A stretch of DNA of 14,674 nucleotides, taken from assembly GCA_964586355.1 (NCBI GenBank), contig CAZPGO010000007.1, forward strand, positions 1 to 14,674. Direction: 5' to 3'. The stretch comes from an uncultured archaeon (GTDB taxonomy: Archaea; Iainarchaeota; Iainarchaeia; Iainarchaeales; CSSED10-239). Under the pieces are notes generated by a model. It had not been told where the DNA came from and did not search any database. It saw only the letters and a list, made by a program, of their open reading frames with translations. Shown here one piece after another: positions 1,735 through 14,674 of this stretch. Every line of letters starts with the position of its first letter. Position 1 is the first letter of the stretch. Made by a program: the position numbers and the translations under genes.

Positions 1735-3288
1735 ATGCCACCCTTTAAAGGTCCAAAAAAAAGACAAGCAGAAAGAAAATCAGTTTCTCCAATTTTTGAA
1801 AAAAGCAATAATAAGAAAGCTCCTAAAAATAAACAAAAAAAGAGTTACGAGGAAAGATTTGCTGAAAAAATAGGTGACAGAGGTAAAAAAAGATTAAATA
1901 GTTTGATTAAAGAATGGTTACAAAAATATGACATAGATGTTTTATCTTATACTAAAGATTACTCAAAAATTAATGAAATTAGAAAATTATTAAAAACAAA
2001 TGATAAATATTTCACAGAGATAGGAAAAACACCCCAAAGATATTCCATAGAAAATGAATTAAAGGGGCTTATAAAACATTATTCTCATTATGGAATTGTT
2101 AAAAGTATTTTGAAATTTAATCTAGATATTCATACTTTAATGGAAACCAGAAAAATAATTGAAGAATTTGAATCTGATTTACTTAATAGTAATATCCCAA
2201 AAAAGGATATCTCTAGATTTTATGCTAAAAAAATTTCTTTTTTAGCTTTAGGTGTTTCAGAGGTTTTATATAGTAGACCTAATATAACTCAATTGCAAGA
2301 AATTAGAAAATTACTTAAAAATGTTGATGTTAAATATAAGGAATATTTTTTGAGTGTGTGTGTTGCTAAAACACTAAGTTTTTATCGAGATATTAGTCCT
2401 GAGAAATTAAGATTATATTCTACAGAGATATTAAATGCATCAAAAAAAACAGGTTGTTTTTATGACATTTCTATTGACATTGAAAAAGATGTTAGATATA
2501 CTATGCAACAACAGCCTTCAATGATATTATATGCTTTTGAAATTTATTATGATTTTCCAAAATTTTGTTTTTTCAGATTTCCTAAATTTAAATTGTTTTA
2601 TTCTGGTTTAAATATTCTATTAAAATCGAGACCAAATTTAGAAAAACTAAAAATATATTTAAATGAATTAAAAATAATGGAAGAAAGATACTTAAAAGAA
2701 GGAGATGTAGATTTTGAGGAAAGAAATAAGCAAAACTTTGTAGAGCACTTAAAAAAATTAACCCCTTTTTTTAGAAGGGCTGATATTTATAAAAAAGAGG
2801 TCTATCAAAGATATGAAAATTTAGAATCTATATTTAACAAAATAACCCCAGTATCTTTTGATCTAACATTTGGAGAATTTTTAGGAATAAAACAACTTTC
2901 TAATTTAAAAAAAATCGGTGTTATAAGACGTAATAGGGAAACAATAAAATATAAACTAAATTGTAAAGAAGATAAAGATGTTAGCGCAGATAATTTTGGA
3001 TTTAATCTGTCTAATCAATCAATGTTTTTAGAGGCTGGTCCAAGTGTTGGCATGTTATTTAGGCCTTCTGAGGTTTTTATAAAAGTTTGGGATGGTGTGC
3101 CAAATGAATTTAAACCAATTATTTTTTTTCATGAATTAAAAGAATATTTAAATTCTGGAAATCACAAAATAGCAAGAAACTTTGAAATTGCTTATGCCAG
3201 TAAATTTTTATCTCCTCAAAAATTTAAAGAATATATTTTGTTTTGTCAAAAAAATAATGCTTTTAGAAATGATCATCAAATAAAATAA
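1735..3288 (+). CDS. Hypothetical protein, 517 aa, with a Lys-rich basic N-terminus and three internal repeats
   Basis: This is a long ORF with ordinary coding composition and an SD-like aagtgat a few nt upstream of the ATG. The repeat motifs are SKINEIRKLLKTNDKY, SRPNITQLQEIRKLLKNVDVKY and SRPNLEKLKIYLNELKIMEERY, spaced about 108-118 aa apart. The first two are visible at DNA level: gaaattagaaaatta(t/c)ttaaaaa at 1975-1996 and 2299-2321. I recognise no family. Confidence 0.8.
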   Translation: MPPFKGPKKRQAERKSVSPIFEKSNNKKAPKNKQKKSYEERFAEKIGDRGKKRLNSLIKEWLQKYDIDVLSYTKDYSKINEIRKLLKTNDKYFTEIGKTPQRYSIENELKGLIKHYSHYGIVKSILKFNLDIHTLMETRKIIEEFESDLLNSNIPKKDISRFYAKKISFLALGVSEVLYSRPNITQLQEIRKLLKNVDVKYKEYFLSVCVAKTLSFYRDISPEKLRLYSTEILNASKKTGCFYDISIDIEKDVRYTMQQQPSMILYAFEIYYDFPKFCFFRFPKFKLFYSGLNILLKSRPNLEKLKIYLNELKIMEERYLKEGDVDFEERNKQNFVEHLKKLTPFFRRADIYKKEVYQRYENLESIFNKITPVSFDLTFGEFLGIKQLSNLKKIGVIRRNRETIKYKLNCKEDKDVSADNFGFNLSNQSMFLEAGPSVGMLFRPSEVFIKVWDGVPNEFKPIIFFHELKEYLNSGNHKIARNFEIAYASKFLSPQKFKEYILFCQKNNAFRNDHQIK

Positions 3289-3876: not shown

Positions 3877-4356
3877 TTAATAATGTTGATAATCTGAAAT
3901 TGTACAATTGTTACATGAATTATTATAGCAAGAGCCTCTTATTATGGTAAATCCAACCATTTTCAGATTAGTTGCATAGCAATTCTGTTCTGTATTATTA
4001 TGTCTACAATGACCACAGATATAGGTGTATGTTTCAATAATGCTTTTTTCATCTGTGTTTGGATGTTCGTCTTTTAATTTGTCGAAAGCTTTTTCTATAG
4101 ATAGTGTTATGCTTTCTAAATCTTCTTTTTTAAATTTATCTGGATTTGTTTTATATTCATAATAAATATCTGTGTTTTCATTATAAATTAGTTTATTATT
4201 TTCATCATATAGATCACTATAAGATTTCTGATTTTTAAATAAAATATTTTTTGCATTTCCTATTGTTGTTGGGGAAATTAAAAAACCACCAATTATTGTA
4301 CCAATCACAAAAGCTATAATAACCCAAATGATTAATTTTTTATTTTCATTTTTCAT
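3877..4356 (-). CDS. Exported or membrane-anchored cysteine-rich protein, 159 aa, sharing its leader with 4410..4685
   Basis: The N-terminus MKNENKKLIIWVIIAFVIGTIIGGFLISPTTIGNA has a basic n-region, a 20-aa hydrophobic core and a GNA signal-peptidase-like site. The C-terminal 50 aa contain 6 Cys (CGHC..C..C..C..C). An SD-like gagagg/aggaaa lies upstream. Confidence 0.75.
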   Translation of the reverse strand: MKNENKKLIIWVIIAFVIGTIIGGFLISPTTIGNAKNILFKNQKSYSDLYDENNKLIYNENTDIYYEYKTNPDKFKKEDLESITLSIEKAFDKLKDEHPNTDEKSIIETYTYICGHCRHNNTEQNCYATNLKMVGFTIIRGSCYNNSCNNCTISDYQHY

Positions 4357-4409: not shown

Positions 4410-4685
4410 TTAAGTCCATATAGCTCCTGACCATACCCCGTCACGACAACAAGCACAACCTAAATTTGGTGTTTCTGTACAAAATTCATGATCGGGACAA
4501 TAACAGTGTCCATTTGTAGAGTGCTCTGATTGAATAGTAATTTCTATTGGTTTATTGTTTTTTCTAGAAAATATTGTGTTTGCATTTCCTATTGTTGTTG
4601 GGGAAATTAAAAAACCACCAATTATTGTTCCAATCACAAGAGCTATAACAACCCAAATGATTAATTTTTTATTTTCATTTTTCAT
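4410..4685 (-). CDS. Exported or membrane-anchored cysteine-rich small protein, 91 aa, sharing its leader with 3877..4356
   Basis: The 35-aa leader is the same as in the neighbour, with 2 aa differences. The mature part would be 56 aa with 6 Cys (GHCYC..C..CACC). It has the same upstream SD-like sequence. Confidence 0.75.
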   Translation of the reverse strand: MKNENKKLIIWVVIALVIGTIIGGFLISPTTIGNANTIFSRKNNKPIEITIQSEHSTNGHCYCPDHEFCTETPNLGCACCRDGVWSGAIWT

Positions 4686-6420: not shown

Positions 6421-7341
6421 ATGAACAAAATAGAGATTATTGAAAGAAAAGGGATTGGTCATCCAGATACAATTGCAGATAATTTGTCTGAAGAATTATC
6501 CAAAAAATTATTAAAAGAATATAGATCTATTTATAGATCACCAAAACACTATAATGTTGATAAAGTTATGGTGTGTGCGGGAGAGTTAGAAAAAGCTGTT
6601 TTTAAGAAATCAGTTAAAATTGTTTTTGCTGGTCAATATACAAAAATTAATGAAATTAATGAAATATTAGATCGCGTTGTTAAAAAAATATTGGCATTTG
6701 AGATAAAAAATGGATTAAAATATAAAGTCTATAATTTTTTAAATCAAGGAAGTTTAGATCTGAAAGACATATTTTTAAATAAAAAATCTAATGATACAAG
6801 TTTTGCTGTTGGAACCGTTGAAACAAAAAATGAAAAATTAGTAAAAAAATTAGGTTTTTATATAGATTCTCTTCACAAAAATTTTAAAAAAATAGGAACT
6901 GATAATAAGATCATGTTTATTGATGATGGCGAATCTAAACAGATCTATATAGCTCTTGCTTTTTTAAATAAATTTAAAAGTGCTAAAGAATATTTTGATT
7001 ATAAGATAGATCTTGAGAGTAAATTAAGAAAAAAGTTTAAAATTAATGATCTTTTTATTAATGTCGGGGATACAGAAGAGATACAATTTATAACAAAAAC
7101 AGGTACCTCTTTAGAGATGGGTGATAGTGGTGCAACTGGTAGAGGGAACAGAAGAAATGGATTAATAACTCCTTGTAGACCAATGACTTTAGAGGCATAT
7201 TGTGGAAAAAATGATGTTACTCATATAGGTAAGATATATCAGGATTTGTCTTTAGAAATTGCAAAAAAGAGAGATAAAAATATTTTGTTATTAAACAAGA
7301 TTGGCGAAGATATAAATAATCCAATGATCTTTGAAATTTAA
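6421..7341 (+). CDS. mat: Archaeal-type S-adenosylmethionine synthetase (methionine adenosyltransferase), compact 306-aa form
   Basis: [19 protein letters not shown] matches the archaeal MAT N-terminal signature (ERKGxGHPDxxxD). [47 protein letters not shown] matches the conserved TGTSAE.GDDG..GRGNR.NGLITP.RPMS.EA..GKNPV.HVGKIY block as I recall it from Methanocaldococcus MAT. Confidence 0.9.
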
Positions 7342-7834: not shown

Positions 7835-8470
7835 ATGGTATTATATAAATATTGTCCAAGATGTTGTTCATTGGATGTAATTAAAGAAAACAATTCAGAA
7901 AATTATAGGTGTAGATCTTGTAATTATGTAGGTCAAGTTAATAGTGATAGTATTGATCAAATTAATGCTTTGAGGGTTAAAGTAAAAGGTGGTATAAATT
8001 ATAGTAATTATACCCCAGCAACATCAATGCAAAAAAATACTCCACAACCAACCCCGAAACCAATCTCATCAACACAACCTGGTGTTGAGGGTAGGGATTA
8101 TGAAATTATTAGAAAAAAGGAACCGGTTTTAGAAACTGAAAATCTAGATGTGGCAGATAATAAAACCTCTGAAAATTTAGAAAACTCTTCCAACTCTAAA
8201 GAAAGTACTTCTGAAATATCTAAATTAGAAACTACAGAAGTTACTGAGGAAAGATCTGCTTTTGAACAAAAAGTTGTGTCTGAAAAGAGAACTTTACCAG
8301 AAGAGAACCTAGCCTCAGTTCCTGTAGAGCCAAAAAAAGAAATAAAAGATAATCCATTTAAATCAGATGATAGTGCCTTGCCACCTCATGGTCTAAGACC
8401 AAAAGAAACAAAGTCTTTAAAAGAAAGATTAAGAGAGAAAGGTGCTGGAAAAGATTGGGACCTATTATAA
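7835..8470 (+). CDS. Zinc-ribbon protein with a long disordered acidic, Ser/Thr/Pro-rich tail, 211 aa
   Basis: The N-terminal CPRC-x14-CRSC gives four Cys in a zinc-ribbon arrangement. The remaining 170 aa or so are low in hydrophobic residues and rich in E/S/T/P/K. An SD-like gtgatg lies just upstream of the ATG. Confidence 0.65.
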   Translation: MVLYKYCPRCCSLDVIKENNSENYRCRSCNYVGQVNSDSIDQINALRVKVKGGINYSNYTPATSMQKNTPQPTPKPISSTQPGVEGRDYEIIRKKEPVLETENLDVADNKTSENLENSSNSKESTSEISKLETTEVTEERSAFEQKVVSEKRTLPEENLASVPVEPKKEIKDNPFKSDDSALPPHGLRPKETKSLKERLREKGAGKDWDLL

Positions 8471-9560: not shown

Positions 9561-9755
9561 TTATTCTTCTTTTTCTATCCTTATGCAGGATACTGGACAA
9601 ATATCTGCTGCTTTTTGGTTACAACCAATTTCATCTACTTCTGTTTTCTTTGGTTTTGCTTTTGCATCTCCTAGTTCCCAGTTTTCTGGACAGACAGAAA
9701 CACATGCCCCACATCCTATACAACTATCTAAGTCTTGTTTTATTTTATATTTCAT
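9561..9755 (-). CDS. Small single-cluster [4Fe-4S] ferredoxin, 64 aa
   Basis: CIGCGACVSVCP plus a distal C..CPVSCI resembles the Pyrococcus/Thermotoga-type monocluster ferredoxin layout. Its stop codon (9561-9563) abuts the nfo-like start codon (9558-9560). Confidence 0.85.
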   Translation of the reverse strand: MKYKIKQDLDSCIGCGACVSVCPENWELGDAKAKPKKTEVDEIGCNQKAADICPVSCIRIEKEE

Positions 9756-9860
9756 ATTTTTTCCTTTTTATTTTAAGTTAAGTATATTATTTCTAAACAA
9801 ACAACTATTTAAATATTTCTTATATCTATTTTTGTATATAAATATATTTTGTGTAAAAAT

Positions 9861-12098
9861 ATGGCTGATAAAAATAACCCTTTTAGAAAACCTGTGGAAA
9901 ATCCAGGAGAGATCTACAAAGCTATATCTGTAGATACCAGAGATTTTGGTGTTTCTGAAAAGCTTACTAGAAAAAAGGAAGATTGGTTTGTTAGATTTTG
10001 TAAAAAGATTTATGAGAAGTTTCCTAATTTAGGTGGATCTAATGCAAAATATTCTGATAATTATGCAAAGGCTATAAATTTTCTTGATTGGGATCTAAGA
10101 CCTGAAGAGTATAATGCTGCTGTAAAGTTTAGTTTATTTTTATGTGTTTTAATTGTCGGTATTTTAGTTACCCTTGGTTTTCTGTTTTTACTAAAACCTC
10201 TTAGTAAAATGTTTGGCACTACTATTTTTGCTATGGTTATGGTTTTTGGTATTCCTTTAATAATTGGAATCTATAGTTTTGTTGTTATAAAAAATTACCC
10301 TTTATCCAAAGTTGCTGATGAAAAAGTAAAGGCACTAACTTTTGTTCCTGAAACTTTAGGTTATATGATAATGTCTATGAAGCTAGTACCAAACCTAGAA
10401 AAAGCAATTGAGTTTGCTGCAGATCATGGTCATGGAAAGATTGCTGATGATCTTAAAAAGCTTCTTTGGGAAGTTAAGGTTGGTATTAAAAACAGTGTTG
10501 CTGAGGCCTTAGATGATCTTGCTTATAGATGGGGAGATGTATCTAATGAGCTAAAAAAAGGTCTTATGAAGATTCGTGCTTCTGTAATTGAGACTTCTGA
10601 GAGTAAAAGATTTCAGTTGCTTGATCAAACTATGTCTGATACTTTAGCTTCTATTAAAAATACTCTTGAGGATTATGCAAGAGGTTTAAATCAACCTGCA
10701 ATGATTATGTTTTATTTAGGTGTGTTGTTGCCTTTATTATTAATTATTGTTTTGCCTGTTGGTTCTGCTTTTTCTGGATCTGCTCTTGCTAAACCGATTT
10801 ATCTAATATTAATTTATAACATTGGTTTACCTATTGGTTGTTTATTATTTGCAAGATATGTAATAAAAAACAGACCAAAGACATATGATCCGCCAAACAT
10901 TCCTGATAATCATCCAAAGTTACCTCCTAAAAATTCTGCTAGAATTGGTAAGTTAAATATTAATATTTTTATTCTCTTAATAATTATTTTAGTTTCAGGA
11001 GTTTTTGCAAGTATTTATCTTCAAACTAATTTTGGAAAAACTAGAGAAAGTGTTTTAGAGTATAATGATTATGATGTAGTTAATCCTGGTTTTCATTGTG
11101 ATGCAGATGAGTTAAGAACCTTAGAAAGTAATCCTAAATACATGTGTAGATCTGAAGTTGAATTTTGGCAACAGCCTGAAAATGATATTACTCCTTATTA
11201 TATTATTTATGGTCTTTTGTTGACTTTTTCTGCTATTCTTTCTTTTTGGTTATATTTTACTAATGTTTATAAAAGAAAAATACAGTTAGAATCTGAAAGA
11301 ATGGAGGGCGAGTTTAAGGATGCTTTGTATGTTATTGCTAGTAGATTAGGTGAAAATAAACCTATTGAAGATGCATTAGAACACACAAGAAAATTTCTTC
11401 CAAAGTCTTTAATTGCAAAAGATGTTTTTGGAAAGGCTATTGATAATATTAGAATAATGGGTCTAACCTTACAATCTTCTTTATTTGATAAAAACTATGG
11501 TGCTCTAAAAAATAACCCTTCAAGAATAATAAACAGTGCTATGCAGTTAATGGTTGATTCTGTGCAATTAGGGGTTTCTGTTGCTGCAAAGACTTTGATG
11601 TCTTATTCTTTGCAATTAAGAAATACTGATGAGGTTAATAAGATGCTTAGTAATTTGGTGTCTGATACAGTTAACACTCTTTCAAGTATGTCAAAGTTTA
11701 TTGCTCCTATTGTTCTTGGTATTACTACTGCTTTACAAAAGATTGTTATCTCAACTTTAACCTCAATCTCAAATAGTGGAACCCTTTCAGACATCTCACA
11801 AATGGCTGAGTCTATTAAGACTGGTGTTAGTGGTGCTGGTATGGGCTCTATAAATACTGGTAACTTAACAAGCTTTGGAGATATTAGTCCTGAGATAATT
11901 AGTCAGATTGCAAGTCCTACTGTGTTTATGATTATTGTTGCCATATATGTTATACAGATTGTTATTATTATGACTTATTTTACTACAAAAATTGAACAAG
12001 ATAATAACACTTTAGTAAAGTTAAGAATAGCAAAGACTTTACCAATTGCTGTGGTTTTATTTATTATTACTACAATTTTAGCAAATTTGATTTTTTAA
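9861..12098 (+). CDS. FlaJ/TadC/PilC-like type IV pilus platform membrane protein, 745 aa from ATG 9861
   Basis: There are two copies of a helical cytoplasmic module of about 120-135 aa (roughly aa 150-285 and 476-615), each followed by TM helices. The total is about 9 TM segments, which is the GspF/T2SSF-domain architecture. The track start at 9849 is TTG, and I prefer the ATG at 9861 (MADKNNPF..). TATA-like TATATAAATA lies at 9835-9844. Pilin-like genes follow directly. Confidence 0.7.
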   Translation: MADKNNPFRKPVENPGEIYKAISVDTRDFGVSEKLTRKKEDWFVRFCKKIYEKFPNLGGSNAKYSDNYAKAINFLDWDLRPEEYNAAVKFSLFLCVLIVGILVTLGFLFLLKPLSKMFGTTIFAMVMVFGIPLIIGIYSFVVIKNYPLSKVADEKVKALTFVPETLGYMIMSMKLVPNLEKAIEFAADHGHGKIADDLKKLLWEVKVGIKNSVAEALDDLAYRWGDVSNELKKGLMKIRASVIETSESKRFQLLDQTMSDTLASIKNTLEDYARGLNQPAMIMFYLGVLLPLLLIIVLPVGSAFSGSALAKPIYLILIYNIGLPIGCLLFARYVIKNRPKTYDPPNIPDNHPKLPPKNSARIGKLNINIFILLIIILVSGVFASIYLQTNFGKTRESVLEYNDYDVVNPGFHCDADELRTLESNPKYMCRSEVEFWQQPENDITPYYIIYGLLLTFSAILSFWLYFTNVYKRKIQLESERMEGEFKDALYVIASRLGENKPIEDALEHTRKFLPKSLIAKDVFGKAIDNIRIMGLTLQSSLFDKNYGALKNNPSRIINSAMQLMVDSVQLGVSVAAKTLMSYSLQLRNTDEVNKMLSNLVSDTVNTLSSMSKFIAPIVLGITTALQKIVISTLTSISNSGTLSDISQMAESIKTGVSGAGMGSINTGNLTSFGDISPEIISQIASPTVFMIIVAIYVIQIVIIMTYFTTKIEQDNNTLVKLRIAKTLPIAVVLFIITTILANLIF

Positions 12099-12111
12099 AT
12101 TTAGATAAATT

Positions 12112-12651
12112 ATGATTTTTAAAAAACTAAACCAAAAAGGAGATAGTGAAGCATTTGAATCTTTTAGGATGTTGATTGCTTTTGTTTTGGCTGCTGCTAT
12201 TTTGGTTATTATTATTAATATGGTTAATAATGTTAATGAAAAATCAGTACAGATAAGCACACAAAAATTATCAGAAGGTGTGATCTCTGGTGTAAAAAGT
12301 GTCGGAACAAGTGCAAGAATTCCTTTTGTGATATCTGATCTTTTACTTAGGGGTACTATTGATAGAAGATCTATTCAAAACATTTCTGGTATGAATAAAG
12401 AATGTGTTTTTTTTATTGCTGGGGCTGGTGTGGATAAGAGTGATAATGGAGAGTATATTTCTATAAAGGGTACAAAAAAGATGGATGTTTATGTTTATTG
12501 TAATCAAACATCTTCTGGCATAGTTGTGGTAACTAATAATTATCCAGAAGTATCTGAGGATCTTTCTACAGATACTTGTCCAACTTTTTGTGTGTTTTTT
12601 TTTAATGAGAGACCAAATGCAGCTCTTTATGGTTCTGAGGAGTTAGATTAA
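12112..12651 (+). CDS. Pilin-like protein with a class III (prepilin-type) signal peptide, 179 aa
   Basis: MIFKKLNQKG|DSEAFESFRMLIAFVLAAAILVIIINMV has a short basic n-region, a Gly and then about 20 hydrophobic residues. The globular part has 4 Cys. The gene starts 13 nt after the platform gene stop. Confidence 0.6.
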   Translation: MIFKKLNQKGDSEAFESFRMLIAFVLAAAILVIIINMVNNVNEKSVQISTQKLSEGVISGVKSVGTSARIPFVISDLLLRGTIDRRSIQNISGMNKECVFFIAGAGVDKSDNGEYISIKGTKKMDVYVYCNQTSSGIVVVTNNYPEVSEDLSTDTCPTFCVFFFNERPNAALYGSEELD

Positions 12652-12669
12652 AAAAATGTGATTATTAAT

Positions 12670-13164
12670 ATGAGAAATAATATTTTATCAAATATTTTTT
12701 TTATAATATTAGCTATCTTAATTTTAGGTGTTGGTTTTTTGTTAGGTACTTTCATTTTAACTTTTATATTTGTTGTTTTTGTTTTCATGAGTTTTCTTTT
12801 TGTAATTATGTGGTTGTTTAATAATTTTGTTTCTTTGTTTAAAACTAACAGATCTAAGCTATTTTTTAAAGCTTTTTTTTCAATTGTTGTAACTTATGGT
12901 TTTATTTCTTTATTTTGGTTTTTAACTTTTAATTATTTATTAGTTCTTAAAAGTTATGCGGTTTTAATAATTTTATGGGTATTTACTACTATTGTTTTTG
13001 GAACTTTATGGTATTTATTACACATAAAAAAGCAACAATCAAAACCAGTTTATCTTTGGGAGTTAGAAAAGGGGTATCTATTAACTTTTTGGGATCTGTT
13101 AGTTATGTTATTAATTCCATCTCTTATTGTTTTTGTATTTAATAGTATTTATTTGATTATTTAG
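12670..13164 (+). CDS. Phe-rich polytopic membrane protein of unknown function, 164 aa from ATG 12670
   Basis: There are about 5 hydrophobic helices and one short polar loop (HIKKQQSKPVYLWELEKG). The track start at 12658 is GTG, and the first ATG is at 12670. I recognise no motifs. Confidence 0.6.
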   Translation: MRNNILSNIFFIILAILILGVGFLLGTFILTFIFVVFVFMSFLFVIMWLFNNFVSLFKTNRSKLFFKAFFSIVVTYGFISLFWFLTFNYLLVLKSYAVLIILWVFTTIVFGTLWYLLHIKKQQSKPVYLWELEKGYLLTFWDLLVMLLIPSLIVFVFNSIYLII

Positions 13165-13307
13165 TTTTTATAAAAAACATTTTCTGTTTACTTTTTTTAA
13201 ATAATTTTTTTATATTTCTAAAAAGATTACCTTTAAATATATTATGGTAAAATATTTTGTTGTAGATAATATTAGTTATTTCTATAATATATAAAAAGGT
13301 GAAAATA

Positions 13308-13850
13308 ATGATAGATTTTGAACATCTTATGAAAAAATTAAAACTTAATAAAAAAGGTCAAGCGTTTTCAACATTTCAGTTATTGATTGCTGCTGTTGTT
13401 GCTTTGGCTTTACTAGGTGTATTACTTCCAATAATTATGAAGAATGTAGATATTGGAGATAATCCTGAAGAATTAACACAAAGATTAATTAAAACTCAAG
13501 TAGATTCTATAGGTTCTTTAAAATATACAAAAGAAGCTACTTTTAAAAATGGAGATTCTATTTCTGGAGCAACTTTAGCTAATTCAGCAAATTTGGACAG
13601 ATCTGAAGTTTGTGTTTTAAATCCAGAGGGTAGTACATTTGAAGGTAGTATTGGTAGGGTTATTACATATAATAGTAGTTCTTCATTAAAATATAAGATG
13701 GGTGTTTTATGTGATTATTCTGATGAATTAGAGGAATCTGTTGAATATTTTGTTGCAGAAATGCCCGGAAATTCTGATGAATGTTATAGTTTATTAAATC
13801 TAGAAGATGGGAATAAAAAGGTGTGTATAGTTTTTCCAAAGAGAGCATAG
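13308..13850 (+). CDS. Pilin-like protein with a class III signal peptide (KKGQ|AFSTFQLLIAAVVALALLG), about 173-183 aa
   Basis: It has the KGQ motif followed by a hydrophobic helix, and 4 Cys in the globular part. The start is ambiguous among GTG 13299, ATG 13308 and ATG 13329. ATG 13308 sits about 7 nt after the SD-like aaggtga. ATG 13329 would give the short MKKLKLNKKGQ leader typical of class III signals. AT-rich TATA-like boxes lie upstream at 13232-13290. Confidence 0.65.
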   Translation: MIDFEHLMKKLKLNKKGQAFSTFQLLIAAVVALALLGVLLPIIMKNVDIGDNPEELTQRLIKTQVDSIGSLKYTKEATFKNGDSISGATLANSANLDRSEVCVLNPEGSTFEGSIGRVITYNSSSSLKYKMGVLCDYSDELEESVEYFVAEMPGNSDECYSLLNLEDGNKKVCIVFPKRA

Positions 13851-13879
13851 TTTAAATATAAAGAGGAGTTGAGAGCTGT

Positions 13880-14077
13880 ATGAATATTATAAAAAAGATT
13901 ATTAAAGATCAAAGAGCACAAACAGATTCAGCATCTACTCTCTATATGCTTGTTATTGTTGCTATTGTTGCTATTGTCTTAATTGCAGTAATAAAACCAA
14001 TGTTTAGTAGATCTATGAAAACTCAAACAAATTTAGCTAATCTACCTGCAACTCAAGTAAATAATCAGGTTTCTTAG
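13880..14077 (+). CDS. Mini pilin-like or Flp-like protein, 65 aa
   Basis: MNIIKKIIKDQRAQ|TDSASTLYMLVIVAIVAIVLIAVIKP has a basic n-region, then RAQ in place of KGQ, then a hydrophobic helix of about 22 aa and a short polar tail. A strong SD-like gaggag lies 9-14 nt upstream of the ATG. An oligo-T tract follows the stop. Confidence 0.45.
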   Translation: MNIIKKIIKDQRAQTDSASTLYMLVIVAIVAIVLIAVIKPMFSRSMKTQTNLANLPATQVNNQVS

Positions 14078-14080
14078 ATC

Positions 14081-14092
14081 TTTTCTTTTTTT
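14081..14092 (+). terminator. Oligo-T tract directly after the 65-aa gene
   Basis: TTTTCTTTTTTT begins 4 nt after the TAG stop, which fits archaeal oligo-T termination. Confidence 0.4.
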
Positions 14093-14147
14093 ATTAAAAA
14101 CAATTCTTTTTAAAAGTCTTTTTCTTATCTATTTTATAAGAAAAACT

Positions 14148-14674
14148 ATGATTAAAAAAAATTCTCTTAATAAGAGGGGGCAAGTAAGTGCACCTTTTGA
14201 AGTTTTGGTTGCTGTGGTTTTAATGGGCTTTGTTATTGTTGCTGGTTCTTTTGCTCTAAGTAATCTTTCTCAAAATGTTTGTATTGGTAATAAAAGATCT
14301 GATCTAAGTAATTTTAAGGAGGCTTTAAGGGATGTTGTTTTAGGTTCTGATCTTGTAATAAGAAACATTAATTTTCAAACAAAGGCTTGTTTTAATGAAA
14401 GGCATGAAACTATACAATTAAACACATATTCTGACCCTTCTAGATGTACTGCTTATTGTGGTGGTGGTACTACTTGTATGCTTTTAGAGTATATTTATGA
14501 AGATTTAGATAAGTCTATAAGAATGCAGCCAATTGATCCTATCTGTATGGATCTTACAACTAGTATTGAGTTTGGAACAGATAGTGAGTGTTTAGTTTTA
14601 GATGATGATACAGATCTTTGGGAAGCAATAGATCCCTCTGGAACATCAATAAGACCAGGTATATATAAAATATT
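14148..14674 (+). CDS. Pilin-like protein with a class III signal peptide, partial (runs off the window end; not in the ORF track)
   Basis: My translation is MIKKNSLNKRGQ|VSAPFEVLVAVVLMGFVIVAGSFALSNLSQNVCIGNKRSDL...SRCTAYCGGGTTCMLLEY...PGIYKI, with no stop in 175 codons. It has a canonical KRGQ plus hydrophobic-helix start and at least 8 Cys in the visible mature part. Confidence 0.65.
   Translation, partial: MIKKNSLNKRGQVSAPFEVLVAVVLMGFVIVAGSFALSNLSQNVCIGNKRSDLSNFKEALRDVVLGSDLVIRNINFQTKACFNERHETIQLNTYSDPSRCTAYCGGGTTCMLLEYIYEDLDKSIRMQPIDPICMDLTTSIEFGTDSECLVLDDDTDLWEAIDPSGTSIRPGIYKI

Follow-up and report, generated by a model that had tools for sequence, protein, structure and literature searches.

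The DNA analysed here (hereafter the window) comprises the first 14,674 nucleotides (nt) of a 27.7-kilobase (kb) Joint Genome Institute (JGI) metagenome contig from an uncultured archaeon of the Iainarchaeota (Diapherotrites, DPANN; GenBank assembly GCA_964586355.1, contig CAZPGO010000007.1), which was read as two loci, L001 and L008. In its 3' part, the gene of a large polytopic membrane protein, referred to below as the platform, is followed by a series of pilin-like genes. The window is very AT-rich (21-31% guanine plus cytosine, GC) and, according to the list of open reading frames (ORFs), every gene called in it from 9861 on lies on the plus strand. The original prediction for this DNA had described a polytopic protein of 745 amino acids (aa) followed on the same strand by five ORFs, four of them with class III signal-type N-termini, and all of these ORFs were found where it had placed them (Table 1).

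The locus was examined in a six-locus comparison in which the platform of L001 shares 86, 62, 59, 46 and 47% identity with those of L007, L011, L015, L012 and L013, respectively. Platforms with an identity of at least 59% define what is called here the clade of the window; L012 and L013 belong to sister lineages. Gene order is kept in all six loci, from 86% platform identity down to 46%. When the window genes were compared with those of the 86%-identical orthologue, the ratio of nonsynonymous to synonymous substitution rates (dN/dS) was 0.12 for the platform and ranged from 0.16 to 0.54 in the other nine genes, values which indicate that the genes are under purifying selection.

The number of transmembrane (TM) helices in the platform, about nine, was obtained from a Kyte-Doolittle scan together with an AlphaFold2 model, which is all-helical (mean predicted local distance difference test score, pLDDT, 83.7; predicted template modelling score, pTM, 0.80), and the same two sources place helical cytoplasmic domains at roughly residues 147-280 and 469-612. 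An alternative TTG start at 9849 would give a protein of 749 aa. Relatives of the platform were retrieved by a word-indexed search, which gave 324 proteins from metagenome-assembled genomes named 'Diapherotrites', 'ainarchaeum' or unnamed archaeon, and by an exhaustive profile search, which gave 933 cluster representatives at E<=1e-3 and 411 at E<=1e-30. Some relatives carry a precomputed PF00482 (T2SSF) annotation and are called 'type II secretion system F family protein' at NCBI. When 55 aligned platform members were scanned singly, 45 matched PF00482 at E<=0.01 in the first cytoplasmic domain. In P0054, P0061, P0073 and P0103 this match covers model positions 4-125 of 125 with 25.4-27.8 bits, against a cutoff of 25.2, and spans residues ~172-322, which correspond to that domain.

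Direct alignment of the N-terminal with the C-terminal half of the platform by hhalign revealed no internal repeat (probability 1.5%), so the duplication was shown via distant relatives. P0345, P0360 and P0422 have above-threshold PF00482 matches in their second half (26.6, 25.7 and 36.1 bits, respectively), and a hidden Markov model (HMM) of residues 455-745 of the window family aligns with residues 370-547 of P0345, 368-553 of P0360 and 352-619 of P0422, with E values of 1e-33 to 1e-37. Because the C-terminal HMM aligns where these proteins match PF00482, the second domain can also be classed as T2SSF-type. From these comparisons the 745-aa protein is a two-domain T2SSF platform, domain 1 being assigned via orthologues and domain 2 transitively, in agreement with the GspF/PilC/TadC/FlaJ-type architecture with a duplicated domain that had been proposed for it. 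Fold searches may add weak support: domain 2 gave 26 weak matches (E>1), six of which were cytoplasmic domains of EpsF, OutF or PilC with target-normalised template modelling scores of 0.42-0.56, none of them significant, and the model of this domain has a pLDDT of only 66.

The platform had been considered oversized, a view that the relatives do not bear out. The full-length ones among the best 120 of the word-indexed search measure 725-812 aa and the members of the wider family found with the profile are mostly of 580-810 aa, in the main of 600-750 aa, so that, judged against its homologues, its size is a family-wide trait. Four regions account for its extra length over relatives of ~625 aa, namely the N-terminal cytoplasmic part, which is longer, an additional TM pair with the extracellular loop that it encloses, a loop rich in Ser and Gly that follows TM7, and a conserved Pro-rich motif. 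This Pro-rich segment and the two-Cys loop were both found at the positions predicted for them. The core of the former corresponds to residues 342-359 (~nt 10884-10937), and P339, P345, I347 and P355 of the motif are invariant across the family; in the AlphaFold2 model the motif is non-helical and is followed by a beta-hairpin at 359-368. As it lies between TM4 and TM5, it would face the cytoplasm, because both T2SSF domains must be cytoplasmic. The two-Cys segment (residues 411-432, nt 11091-11156) belongs to the TM5-TM6 loop, which is shorter in the clade of the window (44-64 aa) than in the sister lineages (72-110 aa); its Cys pair, present in 15 of the 55 aligned platforms and in none of the other 40, is specific to the clade. 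All residues invariant in the platform family are retained in the window protein. The idea that an A24-family prepilin peptidase could be hidden in the extra TM segments was ruled out, as none of the TM segments has an invariant Asp.

The proteins encoded downstream of the platform were analysed for class III signals. Each of the pilin-like proteins has a single N-terminal TM helix by the Kyte-Doolittle scan, and a class III leader followed by a hydrophobic helix is present in those starting at 12112, 13308, 13880 and 14148, and also in two starting beyond the window, at 15422 and 15938 of L001. In 34 sequences from the six loci, forming six orthologue groups, conservation begins exactly at position +1 after the G/A residue; the leaders have 5-18 residues and end in K/R-G/A (one gene call gives a leader of 38), and the +1 residue, usually Q, is followed by a hydrophobic helix of ~20 residues. 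An ad hoc class III pattern, consisting of [KR] within three residues of G/A and then an uncharged hydrophobic stretch of 18 residues, was found in five of the 48 ORFs of at least 50 aa in a 22-kb contig, all five directly downstream of the platform. The six-locus comparison thus bears out the predicted class III sites but places the cut between G/A and the residue that follows, usually Q, whereas for three of the four proteins it had been noted behind the Q.

The individual proteins differ in conservation and size. For pilin-like A, four loci share the site (KG↓DSEAF) and the residues that follow it, with leaders of variable length, and dN/dS is 0.19. For pilin-like C, alternative starts exist at 13299 and 13329 (180-183 aa for 13308/13299); its site (KG↓QAFSTFQ) is preceded in the six loci by leaders of 5-17 residues and followed by a conserved helix, with a dN/dS of 0.54. 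Pilin-like E (site RG↓QVSAPFE, dN/dS 0.24) has the motif [GA]↓Q.[SE]APFE[VL]L conserved in six loci and no sequence relative in the PDB. The best conserved of the set is pilin-like D, with identities of 85, 62, 55, 40 and 45% in the five other loci, similar to those of the platform; it has a sub-threshold match to Flp_Fap (PF04964; E 0.02, 15.1 bits vs. 32.2). The pilin-like parts had been described as all rich in Cys, which holds only in part, the proteins A, C, D and E having 4, 4, 0 and 8 Cys, respectively. The 65-aa protein is likely the major subunit, and the larger ones, which contain Cys, probably serve as minor or tip pilins.

Around the gene of pilin-like D, an AGGAG-like ribosome-binding site lies 10 nt upstream, accompanied by a TTTAAATA box, and T-runs follow the stop codon: the stretch 14078-14147, between this gene and the next, contains T7, T5 and T5 runs and a TATA-like TTTTATAAG. 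Such elements would fit a separate, high expression of a major pilin, and they are also expected by chance at ~25% GC.

Table 1. Features of the pilus-like locus and of its flanks. Positions are those of the window unless a locus is named; an arrow marks the predicted cleavage site.
Feature	Position	Strand	Characteristics
Platform, 745 aa from ATG	9861-12098	+	ORF; two T2SSF-type cytoplasmic domains, ~9 TM helices
First T2SSF cytoplasmic domain and next TM helix	10308-10775 (residues ~150-305)	+	PF00482 matches in orthologues
Pro-rich motif RP.TY.PP.IPD.HP.LP.K	10872-10937 (residues 338-359)	+	Conserved family-wide
Extracellular loop, TM5-TM6	11034-11195 (residues 392-445)	+	Clade-specific Cys pair C413, C429
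Second T2SSF-type cytoplasmic domain and TM7	11265-11780 (residues ~469-640)	+	Transitive HMM link
Pilin-like A, 179 aa, 4 Cys	12112-12651	+	Class III-type N-terminus, ...NQKG↓DSEAFESFRMLIAF...
Polytopic membrane protein, 164 aa (168 aa from GTG at 12658)	12670-13164	+	~4 TM helices, no class III site
Pilin-like C, 180 aa from ATG, 4 Cys	13308-13850	+	...NKKG↓QAFSTFQLLIAAVVALALLG...; G/A↓Q site conserved in six loci
Pilin-like D, 65 aa, Flp-sized	13880-14077	+	...DQRA↓QTDSASTLYMLVIVAIVAIVLIAVIKPMF...; site RA↓QTDSAS, no globular domain
Pilin-like E, 197 aa, 8 Cys	14148 to beyond 14674	+	...NKRG↓QVSAPFEVLVAVVLMGF...; cut by window end, ends at 14741 in L001
Pilin-like	L001 14745		No recognisable leader or cleavage site
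Pilin-like	L001 15422		Class III site, KKG↓FIGAIGDDLPSLIP
Pilin-like	L001 15938		Class III site, RKG↓QAAVTDALFFL
1,697-aa protein	L001 18100-23193 (L008 14221-19314)		Sec-type signal peptide; last gene of locus
Ferredoxin, 64 aa, 4Fe-4S (Fer4)	9561-9755	-	Precomputed Fer4 families; divergent upstream neighbour of platform

Apart from the pilin-like genes, the locus encodes a polytopic protein of 164 aa found only in the clade of the window (present in L001, L007, L011 and L015, absent from L012 and L013), for which no family match was obtained in Pfam or NCBIfam. This protein, or the 183-aa polytopic protein (~180 aa) encoded further downstream, was considered as a putative novel prepilin peptidase and rejected, as neither a conserved Asp pair nor a GxGD motif was found. 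Beyond the window, three more pilin-like genes follow, two of them with class III sites, and after these a minus-strand gene for a highly charged protein, the gene of the ~180-aa polytopic protein and that of a 1,697-aa secreted protein. In every lineage examined (L001, L007, L011-L013 and L015) the locus ends with such a giant protein of 1,500-1,770 aa with a Sec-type signal, preceded by the ~180-aa polytopic one. The only domain match of the giant protein is a weak one to RibLong (E 0.0055); possibly it acts as a partner of the pilus, as a surface protein or adhesin. In the flanks of three sister lineages (L012 1-6470, L013 1-5404 and L014 1-6198), an archaeosortase-like gene (Exosortase_EpsH) was detected a few kb upstream of an ATPase gene, together with a second giant protein of 2,600-2,800 aa with hints of CarboxypepD_reg and SpaA, which suggests that in these lineages the pilus locus lies inside a larger cell-surface island.

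At its upstream boundary, the locus differs between the clade of the window and the sister lineages. In the former, the platform is preceded by the gene of the ferredoxin, confirming the divergent upstream neighbour described for it, which is in turn preceded by a gene for an AP_endonuc_2 protein (xylose-isomerase-like triosephosphate isomerase barrel). The ferredoxin-platform junction is common to L007, L011, L015 and L068-L071, and in L007, L011 and L015 no ATPase adjoins the platform, the ferredoxin being always directly upstream in this clade. In the sister lineages, this same position is occupied by the gene of a T2SSE (PF00437) ATPase of 758-770 aa, directly upstream of the platform (L012-L014 and L016-L024). 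In the loci of P0044, P0072 and P0061 the ATPase gene (761-764 aa) ends 6-45 nt before that of the platform, P0044 being the nearest outgroup to the clade of the window (51% platform identity). The ATPase also adjoins the platform upstream in 10 of the 15 loci from GTDB species genomes, including those of archaeon GW2011_AR10 (complete) and Ca. Iainarchaeum andersonii. Among solved proteins, the sister-lineage ATPase is closest to A. fulgidus GspE, CpaF (second best) and FlaI, and its match to solved structures starts at around residue 300, leaving a long N-terminal extension.

The lack of an ATPase next to the platform had been regarded as unusual; the comparison of loci shows that it reflects a gene order ahead of the platform that is specific to the clade. 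In another ATPase clade, that of P0236, P0266, P0267 and others, ATPases without a downstream platform were seen at L039 464-2770 and L043 2549-4858, and in L042 the ATPase and its platform lie 5 kb apart (10001-12271 and 17567-19984), so linkage between the two has been broken more than once in the family. A further type of locus, from low-GC genomes (L029, L033 and L064), consists of an ATPase and a divergent platform (36% identity), followed by one or two small genes of which at least one is pilin-like. In L033, unrelated genes encoding 272 and 455 aa are inserted between ATPase, platform and pilin gene (12656-13474 and 15797-17164), which suggests entry of mobile DNA into the operon. The alignment of the L029-type ATPases has an invariant C-x2-C...C-x2-H motif at residues 26-44, within the ~300-aa N-terminal extension, that is possibly zinc-binding. 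About one-tenth of the Iainarchaeal pilus ATPases listed have 1,260-1,290 aa and contain an intein that includes a LAGLIDADG homing endonuclease (PF14528, PF14890; homologues P0171, P0184, P0196, P0201, P0210, P0217, P0219, P0220, P0225, P0226 and P0231).

The best explanation for these data, to which we assign a probability of about 78%, is that the region encodes the platform and the pilins, one part of a filament machine of the Iainarchaeota that is similar to an archaeal type IV pilus (Epd/Tad-like). According to this model, the prepilins would be inserted into the membrane and trimmed at G/A↓Q by an unlinked A24-family prepilin peptidase, and the platform, driven by a hexameric T2SSE ATPase, would lift them from the bilayer into a filament built mainly of the 65-aa, Flp-sized protein as probable major subunit. 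As the clade departs from the sister lineages in the genes that precede the platform, its ATPase is proposed to be encoded elsewhere in the genome. The absence of a neighbouring peptidase gene, also regarded as unusual in the original prediction, is shared by all the lineages examined, none of which has one linked, and a prepilin peptidase unlinked to the pilin locus is common in archaea. Adhesion would be the most likely function of the filament, possibly to a host cell, and the host-attachment role proposed for the locus is plausible. DPANN archaea presumably need contact with other cells. In the analogous bacteria of the candidate phyla radiation (CPR), type IV pili are essential for episymbiosis (PMC9894109).

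Several negative results weigh against this model. With regard to the platform, the window protein itself yielded no T2SSF match in Pfam (E<=1) and no match of any kind in NCBIfam; taken literally this contradicts its assignment, but it was overturned by the orthologues and profiles described above. Searches against PDB sequences with the platform alone or with the family profile found nothing, and a whole-chain Foldseek search of the PDB gave no match at E<0.001, with the PilC model 3jc8 (3jc8_Ca) ranking second. With regard to the pilins, none of the window proteins gave a match at E<=1 to the pilin and class III models of Pfam and NCBIfam (PF04021, PF07790, TIGR pilin) except for the weak Flp_Fap match, so the Class_IIIsignal search proposed in the original prediction was negative; the downstream proteins (E<=0.1) and ten orthologues had no pilin or class III match in Pfam or NCBIfam either. 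With regard to the motor, the absence of a visible ATPase or prepilin peptidase noted for the window extends to the rest of the 27.7-kb contig read beyond 14674. Clade relatives on contigs of 286 kb and 79 kb had no T2SSE gene in the 10 kb flanking the locus on each side, and an ATPase of the clade was not among the top matches of two ATPase searches or of two collection scans, one of GTDB genomes (15 loci, none from the clade of the window) and one of JGI metagenomes (32 loci, none from the samples of the window). Amino-acid composition did not separate the low-GC ATPases. An A24 peptidase (PF01478) was likewise absent from the window, the contig and all flanks of the lineages examined, and filament formation, prepilin cleavage and the adhesive role are steps that we infer.

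An unlikely alternative is that the same machinery builds a short pseudopilus, acting as a secretion, surface-display or DNA-uptake device like type II secretion or Com systems, and not a long adhesive pilus; its job could possibly be the export or anchoring of the 1,500-1,770-aa protein at the locus end. The giant secreted and polytopic proteins, conserved in all lineages examined as the 3' end of the locus, would be in keeping with such a device, as would the archaeosortase and the 2,600-2,800-aa protein that sister lineages add just upstream of the ATPase. The six or seven different minor-pilin-like genes point in the same direction, many minor pilins being also seen in type II secretion pseudopili. 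However, the Sec-type signal of the giant protein is its own, components specific to secretion were not detected, and the tiny, highly conserved Flp-like subunit would fit a long pilus, very small subunits of this kind (Flp, EpdE) being typical of real filaments. Taken together, the observations are compatible with either output.

Two further proposals concern the motor. One, a speculation that we regard as improbable, is that the platform-pilin operon of the clade has been permanently uncoupled, that one motor paired with an L029-type platform serves two platforms, and that the pilus and the giant surface protein form a host-contact apparatus. The other, which is very improbable, is that window-type operons have no dedicated motor and share the ATPase of a second, divergent ATPase-platform pair of the L029 type. 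Both locus types come from similarly low-GC genomes (26-30% for the L029 type) and look complementary, the L029 type having an ATPase and almost no pilins and the window type having pilins and no ATPase; moreover, archaeal ATPase/TadC pairs have been described as duplicated apart from pilin loci (Makarova et al., 2016). Against a shared ATPase, the two locus types were found together in no sample or assembly, differing in every case that could be checked, and they may belong to different lineages.

Finally, the notion that the locus is a decaying remnant, which stopped working after the ATPase gene was separated or lost, agrees with the failure to find the ATPase of the clade but can practically be dismissed, given that at least eight independent contigs of the clade carry intact copies of all ten genes, that the dN/dS of 0.12 for the platform and of less than 0.55 for every gene goes along with retention of the family-invariant residues, and that the ferredoxin-platform junction is conserved down to 59% identity, which indicates that this arrangement is old and stable.

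The type IV pilus-like machine favoured here was compared with known systems. The closest parallels are the Epd pili of Methanococcus maripaludis (EpdA-L with EppA) and the Tad/Flp pili, which like the family of the window combine a T2SSF platform with a T2SSE ATPase, present here in the sister lineages and with CpaF among its nearest solved relatives. The window prepilins also have a short leader with G/A at -1 and Q at +1, the latter being a hallmark of EppA/PF04021, and the set includes a very small major-pilin candidate, of the size of Flp or EpdE, plus several larger minor pilins. In contrast, the platform of the window is one fused protein of 745 aa with ~9 TM helices, whereas Tad and Epd platforms are made of separate TadB/TadC-like or EpdJ/EpdK-like halves. 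Further differences are the sister-lineage ATPase of 758-770 aa, whose ~300-aa N-terminal extension is unmatched in solved ATPases and in the L029 type carries the CxxC...CxxH motif, pilins that fall below the PF04021, PF07790 and PF04964 thresholds, the absence of a linked peptidase, and an ATPase unlinked in the clade of the window. Compared to bacterial Tad/Flp systems, the 65-aa protein has A↓Q.....LYM instead of the EY of G↓xxxxEY, and no TadV was seen.

With FlaJ/ArlJ, Sulfolobus Aap and Ups and Haloferax Pil, the locus shares a polytopic platform with two cytoplasmic T2SSF domains, normally encoded beside a FlaI-like ATPase. FlaJ and TadC proteins are ~150-250 aa shorter than the window platform, which is longer owing to an N-terminal cytoplasmic extension with a TM hairpin, the Pro-rich motif, an extra TM pair with its loop and the Ser/Gly-rich loop. 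An archaellum was rejected: no archaellin, FlaF/G/H or FlaC/D/E match was found in the window, in the 10 kb downstream (L001) or in the precomputed Pfam lists of relatives, as had been anticipated in the original prediction.

In the literature, Fig. 2A of Makarova, Wolf and Koonin (2019; PMC6393860) depicts 'dark matter' type IV pilus islands of DPANN archaea, in which an ATPase and a TadC protein lie amid small signal-peptide proteins matching no pilin family, plus surface proteins, and those authors predicted the small proteins to be diverse pilins. As far as that description goes, the situation of the window locus is the same, except that its clade has no adjacent ATPase. Type IV pili are also listed for Ca. 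I. andersonii and AR10 (Vazquez-Campos et al., 2021; PMC8561730), and no description of the Iainarchaeal gene set, of a ~750-aa platform or of the ATPase-less arrangement was found in the literature. The locus can thus be considered a lineage-specific, uncharacterised variant of archaeal type IV pili, in which the 'missing ATPase' and the 'oversized platform' are lineage traits and not signs of a new kind of machine. The comparison defines a conserved Iainarchaeal pilus set, formed by a ~750-aa platform, a ~760-aa ATPase, six class III-site proteins, among them the 65-aa, Flp-sized pilin candidate, and a further pilin-like one that lacks a recognisable cleavage site, together with a polytopic membrane protein and a giant secreted protein. 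Because the pilin-like proteins match no Pfam or NCBIfam pilin model, this set gives them a concrete annotation, and it supplies candidates for structural and cryo-electron tomography work.

Outside the pilus-like locus, tRNA and Rfam scans of the window gave no match. Two tandem paralogues of 159 and 91 aa, encoded on the minus strand at 3877-4356 and 4410-4685, share a nearly identical N-terminus of 35 residues, MKNENKKLIIWV.IA.VIGTIIGGFLISPTTIGNA, of signal-anchor and not of class III type; their Cys-rich C-terminal parts differ and the 159-aa member has no family match. The archaeal-type S-adenosylmethionine synthase (PF01941) encoded at 6421-7341 on the plus strand has only 306 aa, the same length as in L011, and looks short compared with the ~400 aa of enzymes of this kind. 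On the same strand, a Lys-rich protein of 517 aa without a Pfam family is encoded at 1735-3288, and the 211-aa protein encoded at 7835-8470 has an N-terminal zinc-ribbon-like CxxC...CxxC motif and an acidic, Ser-rich tail.

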